Shown here piece by piece: positions 794 through 10,409 of a DNA stretch of 15,949 bases; position 1 is the stretch's first letter; the number at the start of each line of letters is the position of its first letter. The translations under genes and the position numbers were made by a program. This stretch comes from Gemmatimonadota bacterium. Lineage in GTDB: Bacteria; Gemmatimonadota; Gemmatimonadetes; Gemmatimonadales; GWC2-71-9. Below the pieces are notes generated by a model. It was not told the origin of the DNA. It saw only the letters and a program-made list of their open reading frames with translations, and did not search any database. The DNA lies in the NCBI GenBank assembly GCA_003221005.1, contig QHTZ01000055.1, positions 33,896 through 49,844 on the forward strand. The letters run 5' to 3'.

Positions 794-880
794 CGATACA
801 CAAGCATCGCGCGACCGGTGGTCGATGTTGCCGTGGCGGCTCGAACTGGTGGACTATTGGGACGTGAGCGGGGCGAGGTA

Positions 881-903
881 TCGCGACCCTATTCGCAACC
901 GTT
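881..903. repeat. Degenerate tandem arm-like repeat TCGCGACCCTATTCGCAACCGTT
   Basis: 17/23 match to TCGCAACTGAAATCGCAACTGTT (1042-1064 and 4871-4893), with the same 12-bp period; lies on the opposite side of the tRNA fragment at 913-958. Confidence 0.5.
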
Positions 904-912
904 TTTCTACGG

Positions 913-958
913 CGATGCGCCAGGCGGGATTCGAACCCACGACCTTCGGCTCCGGAGG
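913..958 (-). repeat. 3' half of tRNA-Arg(CCG), att-like direct repeat
   Basis: 44/46 identical to 8025-8070. Homology ends just past the anticodon loop (CTCCGGAGG). The two differences are a compensatory T-stem pair. Confidence 0.9.
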
Positions 959-1064
959 GCGAGTTGGTCGGCGGTACGCAACGCCAGCCAACGTCGTATC
1001 AGCAGGTTAGCGCCAGCCAGCGCCGGTGGGCAACGCCCCCGTCGCAACTGAAATCGCAACTGTT
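941..1064. mobile_element. att-like end module Y, copy 1: tRNA core, IHF-like site (997-1009), tandem TCGCAACTG repeats (1040-1064)
   Basis: Colinear with 4767-4893 (by hand: 29 mismatches over 124 bp plus one 3-bp indel). The terminal 25 bp CGTCGCAACTGAAATCGCAACTGTT are identical. TATCAGCAGGTTA fits the IHF consensus WATCARNNNNTTR. Confidence 0.75.
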
Positions 1065-1151
1065 CGCGGCGCCGCCGCGGGCGGCGACGTCGAGCGAAGA
1101 TTGCCAGCGGCGCGCGTGCATCGTCGCTACCATGAGTCACCGCATTGGTCG

Positions 1152-1179
1152 TCACGGACCGGCAAACAAGTGGCAAACA
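1152..1179. repeat. Module X, copy 1: TCACGGACCGGCAAAC followed by a second GGCAAAC
   Basis: 16 bp identical to 5641-5656. Both copies continue with a second TGGCAARCA. Confidence 0.7.
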
Positions 1180-1383
1180 TCTGGCCGCCGGTGTGGGTGC
1201 CCCTGAGGGCTAGGGCTTGACAGGGGGCAGGCGAAGCCGTGGATCGGGATCTGCCACGCGCGCCTCAATGGGCGGCAAGGGCCGCGCCCACGAAGGTGCT
1301 GTACGTGGAGCACTACACCCGCGGTCCACACGTCCCCATCTTGCAGCGATCCTTCACCAACTCAAGCGCTCAAAGGGCCCAGC

Positions 1384-3096
1384 GTGATAGATGTGGGACG
1401 TGGCATAGACATGGGCGATCCCGCCGTCTTCCGCTCGGTTGTCGAAAAGCTCATGAGGACGCTGGGTGAGAAGTGGATCAGGGATCGGTTGGCCAAACTA
1501 TTGCGTAGCTCGAAGGCACCGCTCCCCAGAGACGAGGGATCGCGGTTGCTGGGTGCGCTGGCAGAGTACCCCGACATGCTCCGCGCCCTTGAGGCGGGAC
1601 AGGCACCCCGAGATCCCCACCTGCAGCTGTCTCTCGGGACGGTCGCTCGGGTGGTCTCGGAGTGTTCAGCGGTGCCCGGGGGTAAACGCTTGAGAAGAAG
1701 GCTCCGCCGCCACGCCCAGGCCGACCGGTGGGCCGAGTTCTTTGACACGCTCTTCGAAGGTGAGGCGGCGCTCTACTGGCGCAACCAGATGCAGGCGCGC
1801 GTGGAGTTCCCCGCCAAGGATCATCCGGACTTTCTCGCCGCCGTGAGCCTCGTCGGACACGAATTCTTCATACCGAACGAGTGCAAGCGGATTGAACCGG
1901 TGGAGAAGCGCGAATCCGAACTCGAGCAATTCGCTGCTGCACTGGATCCGGACGTACACGCGTGGGTTGTGGGCCATGCCCCGGTCAAGGTCGTAGTCTG
2001 GCTTCATGAGGAGGCAGCACGGATCTCACGAGTGGAGGTTGTAGGGCTGATAACCGACTTGGCCGCAAAGGCGGTAGAGCCCTCTGTTGGTGTGCGCTGG
2101 CTCACGGCGTCACACCCGAAGGGACTGTTCCAGGTGAGTGTCGCGAGTGCCGGCAAGGATGGAGAGGTCAAGGAGCGGCCGATTAAGATCAACGACATTC
2201 CTGCGGTGGGACCCCTCTTGGTGCGCACGAAGAGCGTCTATCGCGGTCAGCCACAGGATCCGGTCAGCCTCGTATACGCCGTGAGCGTCCGATCAGACGC
2301 CTTGCCCAATCGGATCGGCGCCCTCGAACGCAACCTCAATGAGGCGGTTGCGCAGGTCGCCGTCTCGACCACAAAGGCGCCTGGCGTCGTGAACGTTAGA
2401 ATCCGCCCTCCCCGAGCGTTGGGTGATCTCTATGAGGCGGACGCCATCGTGCGCCGCGTCTTGCGATCACTAGATGCAGAGCACATCGCGCTGGCAGTGC
2501 TCTTTTGGAACGAGAGCGAGCGGGAGGAGGGGGATTGGCAACAAGTGGAAGGCCAATCCCAGCGAGTCGTAACGGTCGGCTACGGTCTCATCCCGTATTT
2601 CATCGCCCACGGGCGCGCTCCGATCGACTTTTCGCCCATCGACTCGAGGGCGAGTCGTTTTGGTTCGGCAGCGGCCATACGAGATCCCGAGACCGGGTCG
2701 ATGGTTCCGGTGGACAGTCAGTTCTTCGAACAGTTGGAGCGCACACCGATGGTCGCAGGAGACCCTACAAGAAAGGAACCGGGAGCATGGATGTACTTCG
2801 AACTGGAGCAGCCGTTTCCAGAAGGGATCACCCGCCAAGCCATTCAGCCCATAAAGGCCGAGGGCCGGATTTTCCTTCCTATCTTCGATGATCAACAACA
2901 CGTTCGATTTGTCGAGTTTGTGGGGCGTGAGCCGGTTTGCGTCGCGACACTAGATCTCCGGGCTTGGCAGGGGCAAAGGGAGTTCTTGTTCACCGTACGA
3001 TGGGACGACGACCGGTGGAGTGTGAGTTCCCCTACGCCGGACGAGACCGCGCAAATCGTGGCGTTGAGTAGCCCTCTTAGGCCGGTGTTCCCGTAG
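1384..3096 (+). CDS. Hypothetical protein with PD-(D/E)XK nuclease-like motif (possible defence protein)
   Basis: 570-aa ORF (start could be ATG 1411). It contains FE.E...HPDF...ECKR (nt ~1755-1890), a restriction-endonuclease-fold signature. No family recognised. Confidence 0.6.
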   Translation: MIDVGRGIDMGDPAVFRSVVEKLMRTLGEKWIRDRLAKLLRSSKAPLPRDEGSRLLGALAEYPDMLRALEAGQAPRDPHLQLSLGTVARVVSECSAVPGGKRLRRRLRRHAQADRWAEFFDTLFEGEAALYWRNQMQARVEFPAKDHPDFLAAVSLVGHEFFIPNECKRIEPVEKRESELEQFAAALDPDVHAWVVGHAPVKVVVWLHEEAARISRVEVVGLITDLAAKAVEPSVGVRWLTASHPKGLFQVSVASAGKDGEVKERPIKINDIPAVGPLLVRTKSVYRGQPQDPVSLVYAVSVRSDALPNRIGALERNLNEAVAQVAVSTTKAPGVVNVRIRPPRALGDLYEADAIVRRVLRSLDAEHIALAVLFWNESEREEGDWQQVEGQSQRVVTVGYGLIPYFIAHGRAPIDFSPIDSRASRFGSAAAIRDPETGSMVPVDSQFFEQLERTPMVAGDPTRKEPGAWMYFELEQPFPEGITRQAIQPIKAEGRIFLPIFDDQQHVRFVEFVGREPVCVATLDLRAWQGQREFLFTVRWDDDRWSVSSPTPDETAQIVALSSPLRPVFP

Positions 3097-3172
3097 CCTG
3101 TACCCTAATCGCGGCCGCGCTCTGAGGGTACGGAAAGGCGCATTATCGTAGTCATCTTCAGGGCCGGCTCAT

Positions 3173-3213
3173 GGACCAGAAGGTCCCGGGTTCAAATCCC
3201 GGCGCCCCGACTA
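3173..3213 (+). repeat. 3' half of a tRNA-Pro (att-like fragment)
   Basis: GGACCAGAAGGTCCCGGGTTCAAATCCCGGCGCCCCGACTA versus resident tRNA-Pro GGACCAGGAGGTCGGAGGTTCAAATCCTCTCGCCCCGACTA. The T-arm is intact (CCGGG/CCCGG). No 5' half or D-arm. Confidence 0.75.
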
Positions 3214-3382
3214 TGGAAGTCGTTGCAACTAGTCCCGAGCTGGACGAGCAACCCACGTGCTCCACCGCCCCGATCCGCGCGCCAATTCGAGCGCAACCCT
3301 GGGGCTCCCCGCGGCCCCTGCTTGATACCTACTTGACTGGCCCGGCCGATCTTGCAAGCATACGACCAGCCTCGGAGACACG

Positions 3383-4648
3383 ATGCGTCCTGCGATTCTG
3401 CTTCTTTTTTCCGCATGCATTGGATGCGATCTCAACGAGACTCCACACGAGCCGACGTTCTTCTTCAGCGCGTACCCACGCGGCACGACGGTGGGGGCTG
3501 TTCTCACCCCGACGCCTCAGGTCCGGATCCTGGATTGGACGGGCTACCTGGACTCCAACGCGACCGACCTCATCACCATCAGCCTCTCTGGGAACCCCGG
3601 GGGAGGAACGCTTTCCGGCGCTACGACCGTGGCTGCGGCGAACGGTGTCGCGACCTTTCCGAACCTGAGCATTGACAAGCAAGGGGAGGGGTACGTGCTG
3701 ACCGCGGCACCAAGAGTATTGCCTGCCTCCAGATTCCCTGCCTTGGGCGGCGCCTTCAATGTGGCATGCGCGTGCTGGAGCAGTAAGGCGCCGATGCCGA
3801 CTGGGCGCCCCAGTCTGGGCGTTGGCGTAGCGAACGGCGTCCTTTACGCCATCGGAGGATACAGCCAAACCTCCCTGGCGACCGTCGAGGCCTATGACCC
3901 GGTGGCCAATACCTGGACGACCAAGGCACCGATGCCTACCTCGCGTTTTGCTTTGGCCGTCGGCGTCGTGAACGGCGTCGTCTACGCCATCGGTGGATTC
4001 AACTACAGCAGCGGTCTGATCCTACCGAGCGTCGCCTACGATCCGGTGGCGAACAGCTGGACGACCAAGGCGCCGATGCCCACCCCGCGCTCGGGTTTAG
4101 CAGTGGGCGTCGTGAACGGCGTTCTGTACGCCGTGGGAGGCGATAGTGGTGCTGCCGAAATACCCGTCGGGACGACAGAGGCTTACGACCCGTCGACGAA
4201 CAGTTGGACGACCAAGCCGTCGATGCCCACCCCGCGTTCCGGTTTGGCTGTTGGCGTGGTGAGCGGCGTCCTCTACGCCGTCGGCGGAACCGATGGAAAC
4301 TACTACCCCTCTGTATACGGCCCCCCCCTGACGACCGTCGAAGCCTATGACCCGGTGACAAACAGCTGGACGACCAAGGCGCCGATGCCGACCCCGCGTT
4401 ACGGTTTGGCGGTTGGCGTGGTGAGCGGCTTCCTCTACGCCGTCGGAGGCAGCGGCCCGACGGGGACCGTCGCGGTCTACGATCCGGCGGCGAATAGCTG
4501 GACGAGCAGGGGACCGATGCTGACGTCGCGGACCTCCCTGGGTGCCGGCGTTGTGAACGGCGTCCTGTACGCCGTCGGCGGATTACCCCTTTACAACGGC
4601 GCTGCCCTCGCGACCCTTGAGGCCTACGACCCGGCTCAGGACCGTTGA
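3383..4648 (+). CDS. Secreted/lipoprotein Kelch-repeat (six-bladed beta-propeller) protein with N-terminal Ig-like segment
   Basis: Signal-like N-terminus with a possible lipobox (MRPAILLLFSACIGC). The NGVATFPNLSIDK..GYVLTA segment is Ig-like. Six repeats of W..KAPMPT.R.GLAVGVVNGVLYAVGG...EAYDP. Confidence 0.9.
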   Translation: MRPAILLLFSACIGCDLNETPHEPTFFFSAYPRGTTVGAVLTPTPQVRILDWTGYLDSNATDLITISLSGNPGGGTLSGATTVAAANGVATFPNLSIDKQGEGYVLTAAPRVLPASRFPALGGAFNVACACWSSKAPMPTGRPSLGVGVANGVLYAIGGYSQTSLATVEAYDPVANTWTTKAPMPTSRFALAVGVVNGVVYAIGGFNYSSGLILPSVAYDPVANSWTTKAPMPTPRSGLAVGVVNGVLYAVGGDSGAAEIPVGTTEAYDPSTNSWTTKPSMPTPRSGLAVGVVSGVLYAVGGTDGNYYPSVYGPPLTTVEAYDPVTNSWTTKAPMPTPRYGLAVGVVSGFLYAVGGSGPTGTVAVYDPAANSWTSRGPMLTSRTSLGAGVVNGVLYAVGGLPLYNGAALATLEAYDPAQDR

Positions 4649-4766
4649 GGTCTGGCGGCCGGGCTCAGAGCAGCGGCAACTCGAGGCCGTCCTTATGATG
4701 CCTGCCGGCTGGCCTCGATGATGGTTTCCGAGCAGCCGACCGTGCCCCAGCGCTCAAACTTACAGG

Positions 4767-4893
4767 GACCTTCGGCTTCTCCGGAGGGCGAGTGAACCGG
4801 CGTCGGGCAGCGCGCGCTAACGCCTTCTCAAGGACTTAGCGTCGGCCAGCGCCCGCAAGCAACGTCTGCGTCGCAACTGAAATCGCAACTGTT
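4767..4893. mobile_element. att-like end module Y, copy 2 (degenerate tRNA-Arg core, IHF-like site 4826-4838, tandem repeats 4869-4893)
   Basis: GACCTTCGGC(TTC)TCCGGAGGGCGAGT...TCTCAAGGACTTA...CGTCGCAACTGAAATCGCAACTGTT, homologous to 941-1064. Confidence 0.75.
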
Positions 4894-4914
4894 TTAACAG
4901 CGGCTGCCGGCTAA

Positions 4915-5490
4915 TCACCGCCAGACCGACGCCTTCTTGGCCCATGTGCTGTCCTGATACCGCTGGGTGAAGGCGCGCGCGGTGTCCTTCAGCGACGCCC
5001 CGTCACCCGTCGCTTTGTAGGGCGCGACCCCCGCCCAGTAGAGTGCCTCCGCTGCCGCATCGGTATGCGGTAGCCGCTCCACAATCTCTCGGAAGCGCCG
5101 CTCTGCGTCGGCCCACCGCTCCTGCTTGAAGGCCATGTGCGCCAGGCCGAGCATCAGTTGCGCGAGGAAGTCGTCCGCGGGAAGAAATCCCTCCACGCGG
5201 TGGCGCTCGACGCCGTCGGCATCCAGCTCGAGAATCGTCGGGGTCCATGGCGCGCTGTAGCGCTCGCCGTAGCGCTTGAAGTCCCCCGGGTTTTCTTTCA
5301 CGTGCACCCGGGCAGGCAGGAAATGCTGGTTCACGAAGCGCACCACGCGTTCATCCGGCCACACCTCGGCATCCAGCCGAGCACAGCCGCTTCACATCGG
5401 AGCGGCGCTGAAGTCGAGGAGTACTGGTTTCTGCTGGGCCTTCGCGTCATTCAGCACCTGGTCAACGTCACGGCGAAATTGGATTGGCAT
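4915..5490 (-). CDS. Thioredoxin-fold plus TPR-like protein, probable selenoprotein (U33-S-G-C), 191 aa
   Basis: Extending ORF 4915..5364 upstream in frame gives MPIQFRRDVDQVLNDAKAQQKPVLLDFSAAPM-TGA-SGCARLDAEVWPDERV...WTPTILELDADG. The TGA (5392-5394) sits at the first Cys position of the Trx CxxC, and the cis-Pro motif WTPT is present. The C-terminal half is TPR-like (AEALYWAG). Confidence 0.85.
5356..5389 (-). promoter_or_regulatory. Bacterial SECIS-like hairpin
   Basis: Directly 3' of the UGA: CGGCUGUG-CUCGGC-UGGAU-GCCGAG-GUGUGGCCG. Perfect 6-bp upper stem, G-containing 5-nt loop starting 16 nt after the UGA, and a GC/GU lower stem. Confidence 0.75.
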
Positions 5491-5640
5491 CGCATGCTCG
5501 CGGGCGGATGTGACTTCGCTCCAAGATAGCCAAGCTCACAGATCTCCGGCACCGGCCTCCAAAGACGGCGGGTCGATGCGGGCCCGCCGTTCTTGTGCTC
5601 ACGCAGGGCCGTTGGGGACCACCAAATACCTCCACGTCCA

Positions 5641-5669
5641 TCACGGACCGGCAAACGGTATGGCAAGCA
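5641..5669. repeat. Module X, copy 2
   Basis: TCACGGACCGGCAAACGGTATGGCAAGCA versus 1152-1179 TCACGGACCGGCAAACAAGTGGCAAACA. Confidence 0.7.
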
Positions 5670-5974
5670 GGTTCCGCATCCGTTGGTCAGCTTTCAGGTC
5701 TCGCCTCCGGAGCAGGGGGATGAACCCGATTCCGATTCCCTCGATCTGGTGCGACCCCGAAGGCTTCCCCGAGAGCACCGCGGATTCCGTCGGCCCCACT
5801 GCCGCAACGTATAGCTGAGGATTGGGCCTCGCAGCGCGTGCGCCGCGCTATGAATCCGCCGGTGCAATGGACACGTCGTGCGGGCCCGCGCCGATGTCGG
5901 GTAAGTCAGTCGGAGCTTGGTTTGGGACGGGTCTTGGTGGGGCGGGTGCGGACTGCGCCAGTGCAACCGCGATC

Positions 5975-7411
5975 CTAGGCATCGGGCGCAGTGGGCGGGA
6001 TGTTCTTGTTCATTCGGAACACGTTGTTCGAGTCCCACTTCGTCTTGATCTCGACGAGCCGATCGTAATTCTCCCCGTACGCGGCGTGGACACGGTCGCT
6101 TCCCTCCTCCTCGGTCAGAAAGTTGACGTACGTGCCCCCCGTCGAAAACGGGCGCAAGTCTTCCCAGGCCGCCCGCGCCCACCCGATGTTCGCCTTGTCG
6201 TCGTCGGCCCGTTCCCACGATGCCGTGATGTTGAGGACCGAGGCAGCGTCGCGGTTCCCCGCCGGGGAGTGCTCGGCCGACAGTCGGTTCAGCGCTCCGT
6301 CGATCGGGAAGACCAGGATTGCGGAGTGGGGCGACGGGATCCGCTTCGCGTGCTCGATGACCTTGGCAAGCATGTCGGGCTCATGCCGTGGCAGGTACTC
6401 TGACTTCCAATAGTACCGCCTGCCCTTCGGTTGAGTCGCGTCGAGCAGGCTCTGCTGCGACACATATGGTCGCCACTGAATGATGTCGCCCACCGGCGAA
6501 CCGAACCTTTTGATCGGGGCGACCTGCCGCTCGCCCTCCGCACGCGGGCCCGTCTGACAGACGAAGATCGCCACGATGGGCTTGCCGTGGATCTCCTTGG
6601 GCAACCATGGCGCTGGCGGGGCGTTGCGCAGGACGGCGACGCAAGTGAGTTCGGGCGGCGCCTGCGCGGTCACGGTGCGGTACATCTCGAGCACCTCGTG
6701 CGCGTCCTCCGCGCGCCACGCCATGGCCCCCGCCATTACCTCCGGTCCGACGGGGTGAAGCTTGTATTCGAAGCTCGTCACGACCCCGAAATTGCCGCCT
6801 CCACCCCGCAGGCCCCAGAAGAGGTCGTGGTTCTCCCGGGCGCTCGCCCGCACAAACCGCCCGTCTGCCGTGACGACGTCCATCGAGAGCACATTATCGC
6901 AACTCCAGCCGAACCGGCGCGTGAGGTAGCCAAAGCCCCCCCCGAGCGTGAGCCCGGCAATGCCCGTGGTCGAAAGGAAGCCGAGGACTGCGGCCAGGCC
7001 GTGGAGCTGGGTCTCGCGGTCCAGGTCACCTAAGAGACAGCCAGCCTGGGCACGCGCCGTGCGCGCCGTCGAATCCACCCATACGCCACGCATGAGCGAC
7101 AGGTCGACCATCAGTCCGCCGTCGCAGACCGCGAGACCGGAGATGTTGTGCCCACCACCCTTGATCGAAACGGTGACGCCGTGCTCGCGAGCGAAGTTCA
7201 CGCACGTCACGACGTCGGCGACGCCGAGGCAGCGCGCGATGAGTGCAGGCCGACGGTCGATCATGGCATTCCAGATGGCCCGCCCGTCGTCGTAGCCAGG
7301 GTCGCCGGGGAGCAAGAGCGCTCCCCGCAGGTGGCCCCTGAGGTCCTCGACGGTGTTTCGCTCGAGCGTGACGACGGTGCCTTCGCTCGTCCTCACTGCC
7401 ACGCTTGTCAC
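5975..7411 (-). CDS. FAD-binding oxidoreductase, BBE/VAO-PCMH family (6-hydroxy-D-nicotine oxidase-like)
   Basis: WNAMIDRRPALIARC, KGGGHN (FAD-linking His), GIAGLTLGGGFG, DLFWGLRGGGGNFGVVT, and the C-terminal BBE motif YVNF...YGENYDRLVEIKTKWD.NNVFR. The start is uncertain; GTG 7411 preferred over 7507. Confidence 0.92.
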   Translation of the reverse strand: MTSVAVRTSEGTVVTLERNTVEDLRGHLRGALLLPGDPGYDDGRAIWNAMIDRRPALIARCLGVADVVTCVNFAREHGVTVSIKGGGHNISGLAVCDGGLMVDLSLMRGVWVDSTARTARAQAGCLLGDLDRETQLHGLAAVLGFLSTTGIAGLTLGGGFGYLTRRFGWSCDNVLSMDVVTADGRFVRASARENHDLFWGLRGGGGNFGVVTSFEYKLHPVGPEVMAGAMAWRAEDAHEVLEMYRTVTAQAPPELTCVAVLRNAPPAPWLPKEIHGKPIVAIFVCQTGPRAEGERQVAPIKRFGSPVGDIIQWRPYVSQQSLLDATQPKGRRYYWKSEYLPRHEPDMLAKVIEHAKRIPSPHSAILVFPIDGALNRLSAEHSPAGNRDAASVLNITASWERADDDKANIGWARAAWEDLRPFSTGGTYVNFLTEEEGSDRVHAAYGENYDRLVEIKTKWDSNNVFRMNKNIPPTAPDA

Positions 7412-7649
7412 ACGCACTTGATTATAGGAACAGGCACAAGGACTCGCCGCGGCGATGGGCCGGGCAATGTCAAAGGTCGCCCGGTACGCGGCGGCCGTCC
7501 AGAGCATGGCCCGAGCGACTGCGTGAATCCAGCGGCCCCCGCCGACGCGTCCCGGGAGGAACTGCGGCGAGCGTTACGGAACGCTCGCCGCTTGTCGTTT
7601 CATGCTGTTATCCGATTTAACCCCCGCCGCCTCATCGCTCAAACCGATA

Positions 7650-7788
7650 GTGGAACAACGCCGAGACAAGTTCGGAGACGGCGGGTCGCACGCTCCGGAG
7701 CGGCCAGGCGTTCGGTCGCGTGGCGACTGATGATCGCCAGGGTGCTCGTATCGGAGAACGGTGGCTCCCCTGCGAGCATTTCGTAGAT
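7650..7788 (-). pseudogene. Fragment of a Hanks-type Ser/Thr protein kinase gene
   Basis: The minus strand reads IYEMLAGEPPFSDTSTLAIISRHATER, then after a frameshift PLRSVRPAVSELVSALF, matching kinase subdomains IX-X. No N-terminal kinase lobe. Confidence 0.75.
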
Positions 7789-8027
7789 CCGCCGACACAC
7801 CCGCTCGCAGCGCGATCATGGCGAGGTGCCGATTGCTGCACAGTTGTCAGCGCCAGCTCGATAACTTGCGGAGTCATCGGCCTTGGTTGCCGGGTGGGCT
7901 TGCTGAGGAAGAGCGAGGAACTCGATACATCGCTGCACCCGCGGGGATTCGACCGCTGGGAGAGTCAAGGTCCCGCCGGGACCTTCGGCCTCGTTGGCCG
8001 AAACGTGAAACCGCGTCTGTAAGTCGA

Positions 8028-8101
8028 TGCGCCAGACGGGATTCGAACCCATGACCTTCGGCTCCGGAGGCCGACGCTCTATCCAGCTGAGCTACTGGCG
8101 C
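8028..8101 (-). tRNA. tRNA-Arg(CCG)
   Basis: GCGCCAGTAGCTCAGCTGGATAGAGCG-TCGGC-CTCCGGA-GCCGA-AGGTCATGGGTTCGAATCCCGTCTGGCGCA; full cloverleaf, CCA not encoded. Confidence 0.97.
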
Positions 8102-8197
8102 GTGTTGTGCCGCAACACCTAAGCCGACTGCGGGCGGCGGCGGGCCAGACCGATGGTTGCCGTAACGGCCTCATTGATGCTCCCGCACCGTGAGCTT

Positions 8198-8239
8198 GGC
8201 TCCGGAGGCCGACGCTCCATCCAGCTGAGCCACTGACGC
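8198..8239 (-). repeat. 5' half of tRNA-Arg(CCG), degenerate duplicate
   Basis: 39/42 identical to 8060-8101; ends just past the anticodon loop. Confidence 0.88.
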
Positions 8240-8317
8240 CCACTCGGTCGGACGTCGGAAGGAAAAGCACGGACGGTGTTGGCGTCCGGCAATCCGACCG
8301 TCCGACAGCAGGACTGT

Positions 8318-8394
<77 letters not shown>

Positions 8395-8426
8395 AAATGG
8401 TCCGACCGTCCGACAGTCCGACCGAG

Positions 8427-8500
8427 TGCGCCCAGAGGGAGTCGAACCCCCAGCCTTTTGGTCCGTAGCCAAACGCTCTATCCAGTTGAGCTATGGGCGC
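8427..8500 (-). tRNA. tRNA-Arg(ACG)
   Basis: GCGCCCATAGCTCAACTGGATAGAGCG-TTTGG-CTACGGA-CCAAA-AGGCTGGGGGTTCGACTCCCTCTGGGCGCA. Confidence 0.97.
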
Positions 8501-8508
8501 GCGCGGAG

Positions 8509-8582
<74 letters not shown>

Positions 8583-8588
8583 AAAAGA

Positions 8589-8717
8589 CTAGACGGGTAG
8601 ACGGCGAGACGGGTAGACGGGTAGCGGTTCGTAGTGATCAAAGGGGAGAGAACCACTCTCGCTTCTCCGCCCCACTCGCCGCTGTCCGTCTACCCGTCTG
8701 TCCGTCTACCCGTCTAG
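8589..8717. repeat. Inverted repeat built from 8-mer tandem units (AGACGGGT), CTAG at both ends
   Basis: 8589-8627 and 8679-8717 form a 39-bp inverted repeat with 4 mismatches. Confidence 0.85.
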
Positions 8718-8720
8718 CAG

Positions 8721-8794
8721 TAGCGGGGGTGGGATTTGAACCCACGACCTCCGGGTTATGAGCCCGGCGAGCTACCAGACTGCTCCACCCCGCG
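8721..8794 (-). tRNA. tRNA-fMet(CAT), initiator
   Basis: CGCGGGGTGGAGCAGTCTGGTAGCTCG-CCGGG-CTCATAA-CCCGG...CCCCCGCTA; unpaired C1 and three G-C pairs closing the anticodon stem. Confidence 0.96.
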
Positions 8795-8801
8795 TCGCCA
8801 T

Positions 8802-8890
8802 GGTCGGACCGTCGGACTGCTGGACGGTCGGACCGTACTTGGTGCTGCTCACCTCACTGTCTGACGGTCCGACTGTCCGACCGTCCGACG
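8802..8890. repeat. Inverted repeat of 8-mer tandem units (GTCGGACN / GTCCGACN)
   Basis: GGTCGGACCGTCGGACTGCTGGACGGTCGGACC ... GTCTGACGGTCCGACTGTCCGACCGTCCGAC. The same unit occurs at 8245-8306 and 8400-8424. Confidence 0.8.
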
Positions 8891-8895
8891 GGCAG

Positions 8896-8968
8896 AGCGG
8901 GAAACGGGACTCGAACCCGCGACCCCAACCTTGGCAAGGTTGTGCTCTACCAACTGAGCTATTCCCGC
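8896..8968 (-). tRNA. tRNA-Gly(GCC)
   Basis: GCGGGAATAGCTCAGTTGGTAGAGCA-CAACC-TTGCCAA-GGTTG-GGGTCGCGGGTTCGAGTCCCGTTTCCCGCT. Confidence 0.97.
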
Positions 8969-8973
8969 AAAGA

Positions 8974-9092
8974 CTAGACGTCGAGACGGGTAGACGGGTA
9001 GGAGGTATCCGCGTCCGTCAGGCTCGCCAGTCTTGCACCCCTGCCAACTGTAGCCAAACAACTCCTCGCCGTCTACCCGTCTACCCGCCTAG
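8974..9092. repeat. Second CTAG-bounded AGACGGGT tandem inverted repeat
   Basis: CTAGACGTCGAGACGGGTAGACGGGTAG ... CCGTCTACCCGTCTACCCGCCTAG. Confidence 0.8.
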
Positions 9093-10320: not shown

Positions 10321-10409
10321 ACGTCGCTACGACGTTACGTTGTACGAACACGGCCGGTGGACATCCGTCGGCCGTTTCGCTTTCGGGGAACGTAACGACG
10401 TAGCGACGT
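10321..10409. repeat. Intergenic inverted repeat/hairpin after the sigma gene
   Basis: ACGTCGCTACGACGTTACGTT (10321-10341) versus AACGTAACGACGTAGCGACGT (10389-10409), 20/21 complementary, with an inner ACGGCCG/CGGCCGT stem. Confidence 0.8.

Follow-up and report, generated by a model that had tools for sequence, protein, structure and literature searches.

The two copies of module Y, Y1 and Y2, found in the window (the whole stretch of 15,949 nucleotides analysed) are in all likelihood the distal arms of two lambda-type tyrosine-integrase islands, whose insertion point would have been the tRNA-Arg(CCG) anticodon loop and which have since decayed. They are best read as decayed, tandemly accreted remnants resembling CIMEs (cis-mobilizable elements). 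Three things were observed directly: the att geometry, the family to which the integrase belongs and, in relatives, the occurrence of arms together with integrase genes. This reading explains the 7-kb att-marked part of a variable region of about 15 kb. Orphan att arms at a tRNA are of a well-known kind; what is new here is the lineage and the link to a little-described integrase family.

Probable att architecture of module Y

Global alignment of Y1 (941-1064) with Y2 (4767-4893) found 95 identical columns out of 127, or 95 of 124 ungapped (76.6%), and a single 3-bp gap located in the core, very close to the original prediction of two colinear copies with about 77% identity and one 3-bp indel. 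The similarity reached a BLAST E value of about 1e-17 against the genome. An invariant 25-mer holding TCGCAACTG twice at a 12-bp period, also predicted, was confirmed, with the word at 1042/1054 and 4871/4883. All five exact matches of this arm word in the window lie inside the modules, and only exact matches are informative: with one mismatch allowed, no enrichment was seen in the window (16 versus 11.2 expected). The other features are given in Table 1.

Table 1. Att-related features, cargo genes and tRNA sequences of the window
Feature	Position	Strand	Remarks
Integrase 3′-end vestige (last codons), from an older element on the left	835..880	+	835-914 aligns to L050 integrase 3′ end and proximal arm
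Degenerate proximal (P′-type) arm pair, 12-bp period	881..901	+	Exact TCGCAACYG at 893; L050 alignment
Displaced tRNA-Arg(CCG) 3′ half	916..962	-	Allele differs from resident gene
Y1 core, anticodon stem-loop	946..962	.	Loop 951-957, putative 7-bp overlap; 950-957 palindromic
Imperfect 11-bp inverted repeat, 8-nt loop, between core and IHF-like site	963..992	+	Fold z = -4.0 in Y1
IHF-like site of Y1	997..1009	+	Exact consensus match
Six RRCG tetramers (970, 980, 990, 1009, 1019, 1032)	970..1035	+	Offsets kept in Y2; candidate excisionase sites
Distal arm pair of Y1, TCGCAACTG twice	1042..1062	+	
Cargo ORF, 570 aa	1384..3096	+	Unnamed atlas clusters at 0.94; Pfam and NCBIfam searches without match
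Kelch-repeat protein, cargo ORF	3383..4648	+	
Damaged Y2 core	4765..4791	.	3-bp insertion at left half-site/loop boundary; T-arm and acceptor copy absent
IHF-like site of Y2	4826..4838	+	One mismatch
Distal arm pair of Y2, TCGCAACTG twice	4871..4891	+	
Thioredoxin-like/TPR cargo gene	4915..5490	-	Travels with Y2
FAD-binding/BBE oxidoreductase, cargo ORF	5975..7507	-	
Degenerate proximal end, other arm type	7977..8027	+	Adjoins intact tRNA
tRNA-Arg(CCG), intact	8028..8101	-	Integration target

The core had been taken for an anticodon loop, and comparison with the tRNA-Arg(CCG) gene revealed that it is the loop of this tRNA; the identity of Y1 to the gene stops at 958, one base beyond it. Y1 appears to have the core of a lambda-type site, in which inverted half-sites flank a 7-bp overlap that attB also carries, and crossover would fall within its loop; in Y2 the same arrangement is disrupted by the 3-bp insertion.

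The Y1 sequence TATCAGCAGGTTA is the sole exact match within the window to WATCARNNNNTTR, the E. coli IHF consensus. With at most one mismatch, eight matches were found in the window against 3.6 expected, a number reached in 4 of 200 shuffles. In the IHF-like motif of the original prediction, Y1 and Y2 are identical at only 7 of the 13 positions, with the variation at N4. Genome-wide, 63 relaxed IHF-like sites were found, four of them followed by a tandem repeat within 80 bp downstream; all four are modules (Y1, Y2, C68 and C40), although the repeat detected in C40 is other than the arm word.

Fixed spacing with diverged spacers had also been predicted. The core-to-IHF spacing is indeed fixed, but the spacers are more than diverged sequence: they hold a covarying 11-bp inverted repeat and the six phased RRCG motifs, and 18 of 38 and 18 of 32 of their columns are invariant across three Y lineages. 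Codon periodicity of a coding type, named beforehand as evidence against an att site, was looked for and is absent (18/15/16 changes by frame), the variation being concentrated at N4.

Comparison with homologues, proposed as a check of the prediction, found a constant core-to-IHF distance: all 12 named Gemmatimonadota loci have exactly 40 bp. The arm word varies by lineage, and the arm pair has a 12-bp period in 11 of the 12. From IHF-like site to arm there are either 32 or about 42 bp, two values that differ by one helical turn. Many homologous loci are near-identical copies and non-independent. Among 35 genome matches, 23 without a Gemmatimonadota title were left out of the counts (mostly intact tRNA-Arg genes with an upstream IHF-like site, or chance), and two of 25 metagenome matches (L052) were dropped as an unrelated repeat. 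The dyad-plus-IHF pattern had four genome matches, three modules and one by chance. When the Y arm pair was searched for across the order, 7 of 400 other genomes had a match, in no case close to a tRNA or an integrase, and scans of viral contigs gave one unrelated pattern match and otherwise only distant integrases. Empty tRNA sites are present in two genomes of the same genus. The stretch, whole or in part, is contained in 20 runs from 15 soil studies.

The cognate integrase family

Identification of the cognate integrase, a further check proposed at the outset, led to a tyrosine-integrase family whose intact elements have matched arm words at both ends. With the fixed geometry and the tRNA core, this supports the lambda-like att architecture first claimed for module Y. 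An integrase remnant beside a sister module, on contig C40 of the same genome, had matches in 45 of 201 family genomes, and a long match to the family integrase was found in 33 of 325 (about 10%). All eight family proteins tested scored above the cut-off of PF00589. R229, K259, R331, H359 and Y369 are invariant in 15 family sequences, the first H of HxxR being mostly K; the tyrosine recombinase catalytic set (R-K-H-R-H/W-Y) is thus present in the relatives and not in the window. Of 47 distinct integrase 3′ ends, 35 lie within 330 nt of a tRNA or of the 3′ half of one. A search with phmmer using XerD-like and integron-integrase baits had suggested that the Gemmatimonadales loci hold no recombinase, which was overturned by the family HMM: it detected a complete gene in L080, and L050 and L057 proved to hold remnants. 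A Xer/dif site was rejected, as dif symmetry, judged by eye, is absent.

A core-free DNA profile located homologous arms at the distal end of five elements (L150, L153, L155, L223 and L224) that have a full-length integrase and matching arm words at their two ends. The same word also occurs at both ends in L050, C68, C40 and L089; in the window, L074, L053 and L048 the words are mismatched or degenerate between ends. In L220 the integrase is full-length too, and it lies at tRNA-Arg(CCG) in the same orientation as in the window. A single contig joining a full-length integrase to TCGCAACTG arms was sought and none was found. In the Y-type element of L050, an integrase C-terminus (E 7e-39), for which 429-aa relatives at 90% identity exist, directly precedes the matching arm pair. 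The alignment of window 835-914 to this region scored 53, equalled by 0 of 1000 shuffles, and full-length relatives terminate in the same residues as the vestige. The proximal pair next to it would make Y1 an attP-like junction of two elements.

The N-terminal domain of the integrase was modelled as strand-strand-(short helix)-strand-helix (pLDDT 91). Its nearest atlas clusters are all arm-binding families, lambda/Tn916-like (language-model scores 0.96 and 0.95). A fold search returned lambda Int arm-binding domains at Z 3.5-3.6, under unrelated matches of up to 4.5, and Foldseek, Pfam and PDB sequence searches with this domain gave no significant match. For the integrase model, the best Foldseek matches were Tn1549 Int and lambda Int. 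HTH_17 genes are present in four elements (L150, L153, L149 and L159), a relaxase in L150 and L145, and a capsid in the satellite-like L155. In the host, a single protein (contig C106) is IHF-beta-like and another is HU-like, and each scores below the NCBIfam equivalog cut-offs.

These data suggest how the islands may have been built. A lambda-type tyrosine integrase would insert them at the tRNA-Arg(CCG) anticodon loop, its catalytic domain binding the half-sites that flank the 7-bp loop and its N-terminal domain the arm pairs of 12-bp period, while a host IHF-like protein would introduce a bend 40 bp from the core and the phased RRCG motifs would be bound by an excisionase of the HTH_17 type. 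The islands would arrive separately and stack head to tail; the three different tRNA alleles within the window point to such separate arrivals. Deletion would then remove the integrase, the excisionase and the matching far ends, leaving CIME-like remnants with their cargo.

Probable decay of the islands and alternative explanations

The window has no match to the family HMM, with no trace of the integrase between Y1 and the tRNA. In the genome only fragments and no intact family integrase were found, in an assembly of 141 contigs and 94% completeness from which the gene could be missing. Among 10 window ORFs scanned, none has a Pfam match for integration or transfer genes, the loss of which characterises CIMEs. 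Both Y1 and Y2 lack an integrase as well as a partner end that matches, so that these two units are more decayed than a CIME as defined. The distal arms are intact; the proximal end on the right has degenerated and belongs to another arm type (for 7977-8071/8104, identity to the proximal ends of L006, L066, L074 and L089 is 83-89%), and the Y2 core is damaged where that of L054, L059 and L095 is intact. Y2 is probably dead. The Y1 junction looks intact and could be usable by the integrase of an incoming relative. The original prediction saw selection on protein-binding sites rather than a recent duplication; homologues and the integrase link bear out this choice, but the selection dates from active elements and the copies in the window look orphaned.

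Units without an integrase might instead be a pool of minimal cassettes, excised and re-integrated in trans by helpers of the same clade, integron-like at tRNA genes. Among 14 distinct elements with both ends within one retrieved locus, nine have no integrase trace, three a C-terminal remnant and two a full gene, and a full gene is found in 0 of 9 elements at tRNA-Arg(CCG), as this explanation would have it; the census is, however, biased to elements of <20 kb and to one tRNA core, and decay is expected to leave remnants cut off at differing points. Several units, such as C68 and L089, retain both attL and attR with matching arm words, and roughly one in ten family genomes has a long integrase match, but an intact integrase was found in only 1 of 5 module-bearing genomes, where its arm word differs from that of the module. 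The unit 4765-5700 (Y2 and the thioredoxin-like/TPR gene), 92-96% identical in other loci, sits behind four different left neighbours; since L050 retains an integrase remnant, independent integrations of a once-autonomous element explain this. Given also the damaged Y2 core and the different arm type at the right end of the window, we consider the cassette explanation rather improbable. Its broadest form is a speculation that we hold unlikely: soil Gemmatimonadales would permanently maintain a stock of cassettes of 1-8 kb that have complete arms but no integrase, moved in trans among tRNA genes by a helper clade (relaxase-bearing IMEs and phage satellites), the arm word serving as an address matched to the helper N-terminal domain and the palindromic CTCCGGAG loop allowing either orientation at tRNA-Arg(CCG). 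If true, this would be an integron-like system made from lambda-type att sites, invisible to integrase-based island finders.

Module Y could also be, in the main, an RNA structure or a terminator that goes with tRNA fragments and is conserved at the RNA level. RNA covariation had been named in advance as evidence against an att site, and it was partly observed: the 11-bp dyad between core and IHF-like site pairs in 86% of cells (18-50% when slid), with changes in both partners of 6 of the 11 pairs in 18 rows, although the rows are related and the shuffle control therefore overstates the dyad. In 20 rows, one of them unrelated, there are 16 G-U pairs on the + strand versus 10 on the - strand, and 3.9 T within 12 nt past the stem. 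But the repeat forms part of the att architecture and is no substitute for it. No Rfam family spans the module, a terminator scan made no call at the hairpin, the consensus fold leaves the arms and the IHF-like site unpaired apart from T bases, and in the Y2 lineage the hairpin is absent (z > 0 on the + strand) with the arms still invariant. The RNA explanation is thus very improbable, and the dyad is at most a sub-feature of the arm. Chance or local duplication without function, which the 3.8 kb between the copies in one decayed region might suggest, is scarcely credible, given the Y2 relatives in other genomes (far closer to it than Y1, at 76%), the different tRNA alleles of Y1 and Y2, the variation without codon phase and the integrase-linked homologues.

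Decayed lambda-type islands remain the preferred explanation, and exemplify accessory-gene gain at tRNA loci in an abundant, poorly studied soil lineage. For the compact integrase clade, core, IHF and arm sites can be predicted at several tRNA targets; its arm words vary between subclades, a ready test set for arm-site specificity, and it may offer an integration tool for Gemmatimonadota.

Comparison with known systems

Among the matches listed in searches of openly accessible articles, nothing relevant on such a system in Gemmatimonadota was found. The lambda-type att scheme, as outlined in PMC2951348 and PMC8138268, comprises a core, paired arm repeats, an IHF site, an arm-binding integrase and an excisionase. 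Lambda attP/attR, KplE1 IntS with TorI and Tn916/Tn1549 Int share with the Y family, as judged from its sequences, a core with a 7-bp overlap, arm-type repeat pairs on both sides, an IHF-like site, a three-domain integrase and an adjacent excisionase-like gene. The Y-family integrase differs in having only 14-17% sequence identity to these and no Pfam arm-binding match. Its arm pair lies in or just after the last integrase codons, the IHF-like site is about 40 bp from the core in both arms, and the distal arm has a dyad between core and IHF-like site.

Streptococcal CIMEs (PMC5704250, PMC7563491) have lost integration and transfer genes, keep their att ends, measure 1.2-13 kb with cargo and accrete in tandem at tRNA genes. 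The Gemmatimonadales elements, of 1-8 kb, are similar, and the intact relative L150 is an IME with relaxase, HTH_17 and integrase; they belong, however, to another phylum and integrase clade, and their intact relatives include the capsid-bearing L155.

Islander/TIGER islands, according to PMC4383910 and PMC12424338, have an intact tRNA and a displaced fragment at their ends, an anticodon-centred crossover and tandem arrays, all of which the Y islands share. These tools require an integrase gene, and integrase-less Y units would therefore be missed. Islands with a 5′ fragment make up 159 of 3919 in the same sources, whereas in the Y family 20 of 35 tRNA-adjacent integrase ends point into the tRNA 5′ end.

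Sequence features and relatives of module Y

Global alignment of the two copies of module Y (Y1 and Y2) gave 95 identical columns out of 127 and a single 3-bp gap, in keeping with the original prediction of about 77% identity and one 3-bp indel. The claimed positions also held up in alignment and pattern scans for the invariant 25-mer, for the arm word with its 12-bp period and for both IHF-like 13-mers. The attL/attR and P/P′ labels and the IHF consensus follow general convention; in the window, that consensus is matched exactly by the Y1 site only. Among 63 relaxed IHF-like sites across the genome (G000; 2.79 Mb in 141 contigs, 94% complete), four have a tandem repeat just downstream: Y1, Y2 and sister modules on contigs C68 and C40. 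The Y feature is real and no product of chance. A comparison of three Y lineages showed no change in the arms (21 of 21 columns invariant), a wholly variable IHF N4 (0 of 4 columns invariant) and no codon phase in the variation.

An exact arm-pair scan returned 25 matches in 22 metagenome loci, 23 being Y modules and two unrelated. The core lies at the same distance in 17 of the 23, four have deletions and two are Y2 itself; many of the metagenome modules are near-identical, so the set represents only a handful of lineages. The core-plus-IHF pattern matched 35 genome loci, 12 of them under Gemmatimonadales or Gemmatimonadota names. In each of these 12, core and IHF-like site are exactly 40 bp apart; 11 also carry a 12-bp-period arm pair, the word of which differs (TGTTACC, TGTTACTG, TGCTACTG and TCGCAACTG). 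Between IHF-like site and arm lie 32 bp in the Y class (arms with the module Y word) and about 42 bp in other classes, a difference of one helical turn, as would be expected of a bent-DNA complex.

In Vicinamibacterales genomes (L065, L069-L072, L075, L076 and other loci) an intact tRNA-Arg(CCG) is immediately preceded on its 5′ side by an IHF-like site and a TGCCAGCCG pair, often with other tyrosine recombinases within 10 kb.

The spacer between core and IHF-like site was found to be an 11-bp inverted repeat, which the original prediction had overlooked. In the aligned rows 86% of cells pair; sliding the repeat lowers this to 18-50%. Both sides have changed in six of the 11 pairs, a covariation that counts as suggestive, given that the rows are mutually related. 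The repeat folds well in Y1 (z = -4.0), not in Y2, and was not called by the terminator scan; it may end transcripts that run through the core, or serve as a dyad site for a protein. Six RRCG tetramers common to Y1 and Y2, in 10-13-bp steps with one 19-bp step spanning the IHF-like site, are candidate excisionase sites.

The cognate integrase family

A search of the loci with Xer and integron baits did not detect the family integrase, which was later found with another query. A remnant of 37 residues next to the C40 module had matches in 45 of 201 family genomes, and the clade defined from it comprises tyrosine recombinases of 410-450 aa, the genes of which terminate in or beside a 12-bp-period arm pair. 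Of 47 distinct integrase 3′ ends, 35 lie within 330 nt of a tRNA or of the 3′ half of one; 20 of these point into the tRNA 5′ end, and the other 15 are oriented as in the window.

With a DNA profile of the arms built without the core, a Y-like arm was found at the far end of elements that have a full-length integrase, the two ends agreeing in their arm word, in three loci at tRNA-Arg(TCT): L150 (with a relaxase, an HTH_17 gene and the integrase), L153 and L155 (with a capsid gene). At tRNA-Pro, L223 has a full-length integrase, a Y-like arm at the far end and identical arm words at both ends. For L224, with an Arg(CCG)-type core and a full-length integrase, the profile scored weakly and the assignment depends on the arm words; L220, oriented as in the window, has a full integrase gene at tRNA-Arg(CCG), its far end lying beyond the contig. 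Integrase-bearing relatives with matching arm words at both element ends thus support the lambda-like att reading first proposed.

In the Y class itself, the L050 element opens with a Y arm; at its other end come the integrase C-terminus, then an arm pair that matches, then the tRNA half. Full-length relatives exist at 90% identity. The alignment of window 835-914 to this same end scored higher than all 1000 shuffles, which makes Y1 an attP-like junction between two Y-type elements.

Structure prediction gave three strands and a helix for the N-terminal domain of the clade, and its closest atlas clusters were the lambda and Tn916 arm-binding families. Because structure searches with the domain did not single out these families, it is graded only as a likely arm-binding domain. 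Between the Y clade and other clades, identity is 34-37% in the N-terminal domain and 54-62% in the catalytic domain, while the other two groups share 53%. The divergence of the Y-clade domain fits a changed arm word, as a consistency and not an independent test.

tRNA-Arg setting and state of the elements

Features of the window around module Y
Position	Feature	Reading
835-914	Aligns to L050 integrase end	
916-962	Displaced 3′ half of tRNA-Arg(CCG)	
941-1064	Y1	
950-957	Perfect 8-bp palindrome, tRNA-Arg(CCG) loop region	
1152-1180, 5641-5670	Module X, after each Y copy: GGCAAAC-like pair, 12-13-bp period	Probably another arm pair
1384-3096	570-aa cargo protein, no family; closest atlas clusters unnamed	
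3173-3340	3′ part of tRNA-Pro(TGG), 40/40 identical to C17 gene, opposite orientation; CTTGA pair about 110 bp beyond	End of element from another tRNA, embedded in array
4767-4893	Y2	
5702-5848	Gene fragment, 79% identical to stretch on C118	Sign of decay
7545-7610	Core-like word, 12-pair hairpin, TCA-N5-TTA at same 40-bp spacing, arm pair absent	Possible third, degenerate arm copy; may simply be a terminator
7642-7800	Gene fragment resembling kinase C-termini	Sign of decay
8028-8101	tRNA-Arg(CCG), minus strand, first of 7 clustered tRNA genes	
8102-8239	Degenerate IHF-like word between tRNA-Arg gene and 5′-half copy	Gene-less remnant on tRNA-Arg 5′ side
8188-8239	Copy of tRNA-Arg 5′ half, 86 bp upstream of gene	
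8284-9092, 10321-10409	8-bp tandem units making long inverted repeats, between tRNA genes and after sigma-70 gene	

Identity of the half preceding Y1 to the tRNA gene stops 1 base beyond the anticodon loop. At Y2 just the final 12 bases of the half are left, and the core is damaged, with three inserted bases; the two halves and the resident gene are three distinct alleles. In two same-genus genomes a homologue of the gene at C38:25703-27151 directly adjoins tRNA-Arg. The DNA accreted at this site therefore comes to about 15 kb; the part marked by att arms is 916-8027.

No trace of the family integrase was found between Y1 and the tRNA by a family-profile search, and in this genome the integrase is present as fragments only (C73, C40). 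The right-hand end of the array is degenerate and of a different arm type. In a census restricted to loci of up to 20 kb, a second core was found inside the fetched locus for 22 of 57 arm matches, giving 14 distinct elements: nine without integrase, three with a remnant and two with the full gene. One of five module-bearing genomes has an intact integrase, and its arm word differs. Decay following tandem accretion explains all observed element states; that integrase-less cassettes are actively mobilized in trans is improbable.

No core was found for module X, which also occurs in L050 and L095, closing the 935-bp unit that they share with the window. The 7545-7610 feature was not detected by the arm profile. 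Family integrases at tRNA-Arg(CCG) occur in both orientations (one as in the window, four opposite). Because they do so at tRNA-Val(CAC) and tRNA-Ile(GAT) as well, the palindrome is no prerequisite. Elsewhere in the genome, tRNA-Gly(CCC) has on its 5′ side a 1-kb element (L011; C40:44300-45409) with arms that match each other, a remnant of an integrase and two small genes that, judged by eye, look like a PIN/RHH toxin-antitoxin pair. Further integrase remnants with 12-bp-period arm pairs lie beside tRNA-Lys, -Ser, -Phe and -Val on C42, C34, C104 and C73, and C10 has an integron-integrase-like gene. The assembly holds the Arg-Pro-Arg-Val-Met tRNA cluster twice (C38 and C68), with different islands at each copy, perhaps because the bin combines more than one strain.

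Comparison with known systems

Judged by layout, module Y works like an att arm of the lambda/KplE1 type, following the scheme outlined in PMC2951348 and PMC8138268. The 7-bp anticodon loop fits the lambda overlap as treated in PMC8371274; bacterial elements in that account seldom replace the tRNA promoter; the present integrase family often points into the tRNA 5′ end. The integrase-less tandem units match the concept of the cis-mobilizable element (CIME) as sketched in PMC5704250 and PMC7563491. Islander and TIGER would miss them, because both, as presented in PMC4383910 and PMC12424338, require an integrase gene. Among the papers listed by our literature searches, none is on this integrase clade. 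The Y1/Y2 observation as a whole was confirmed and its interpretation as att arms is supported; the kind of element is already known, and the Y modules add one more case.
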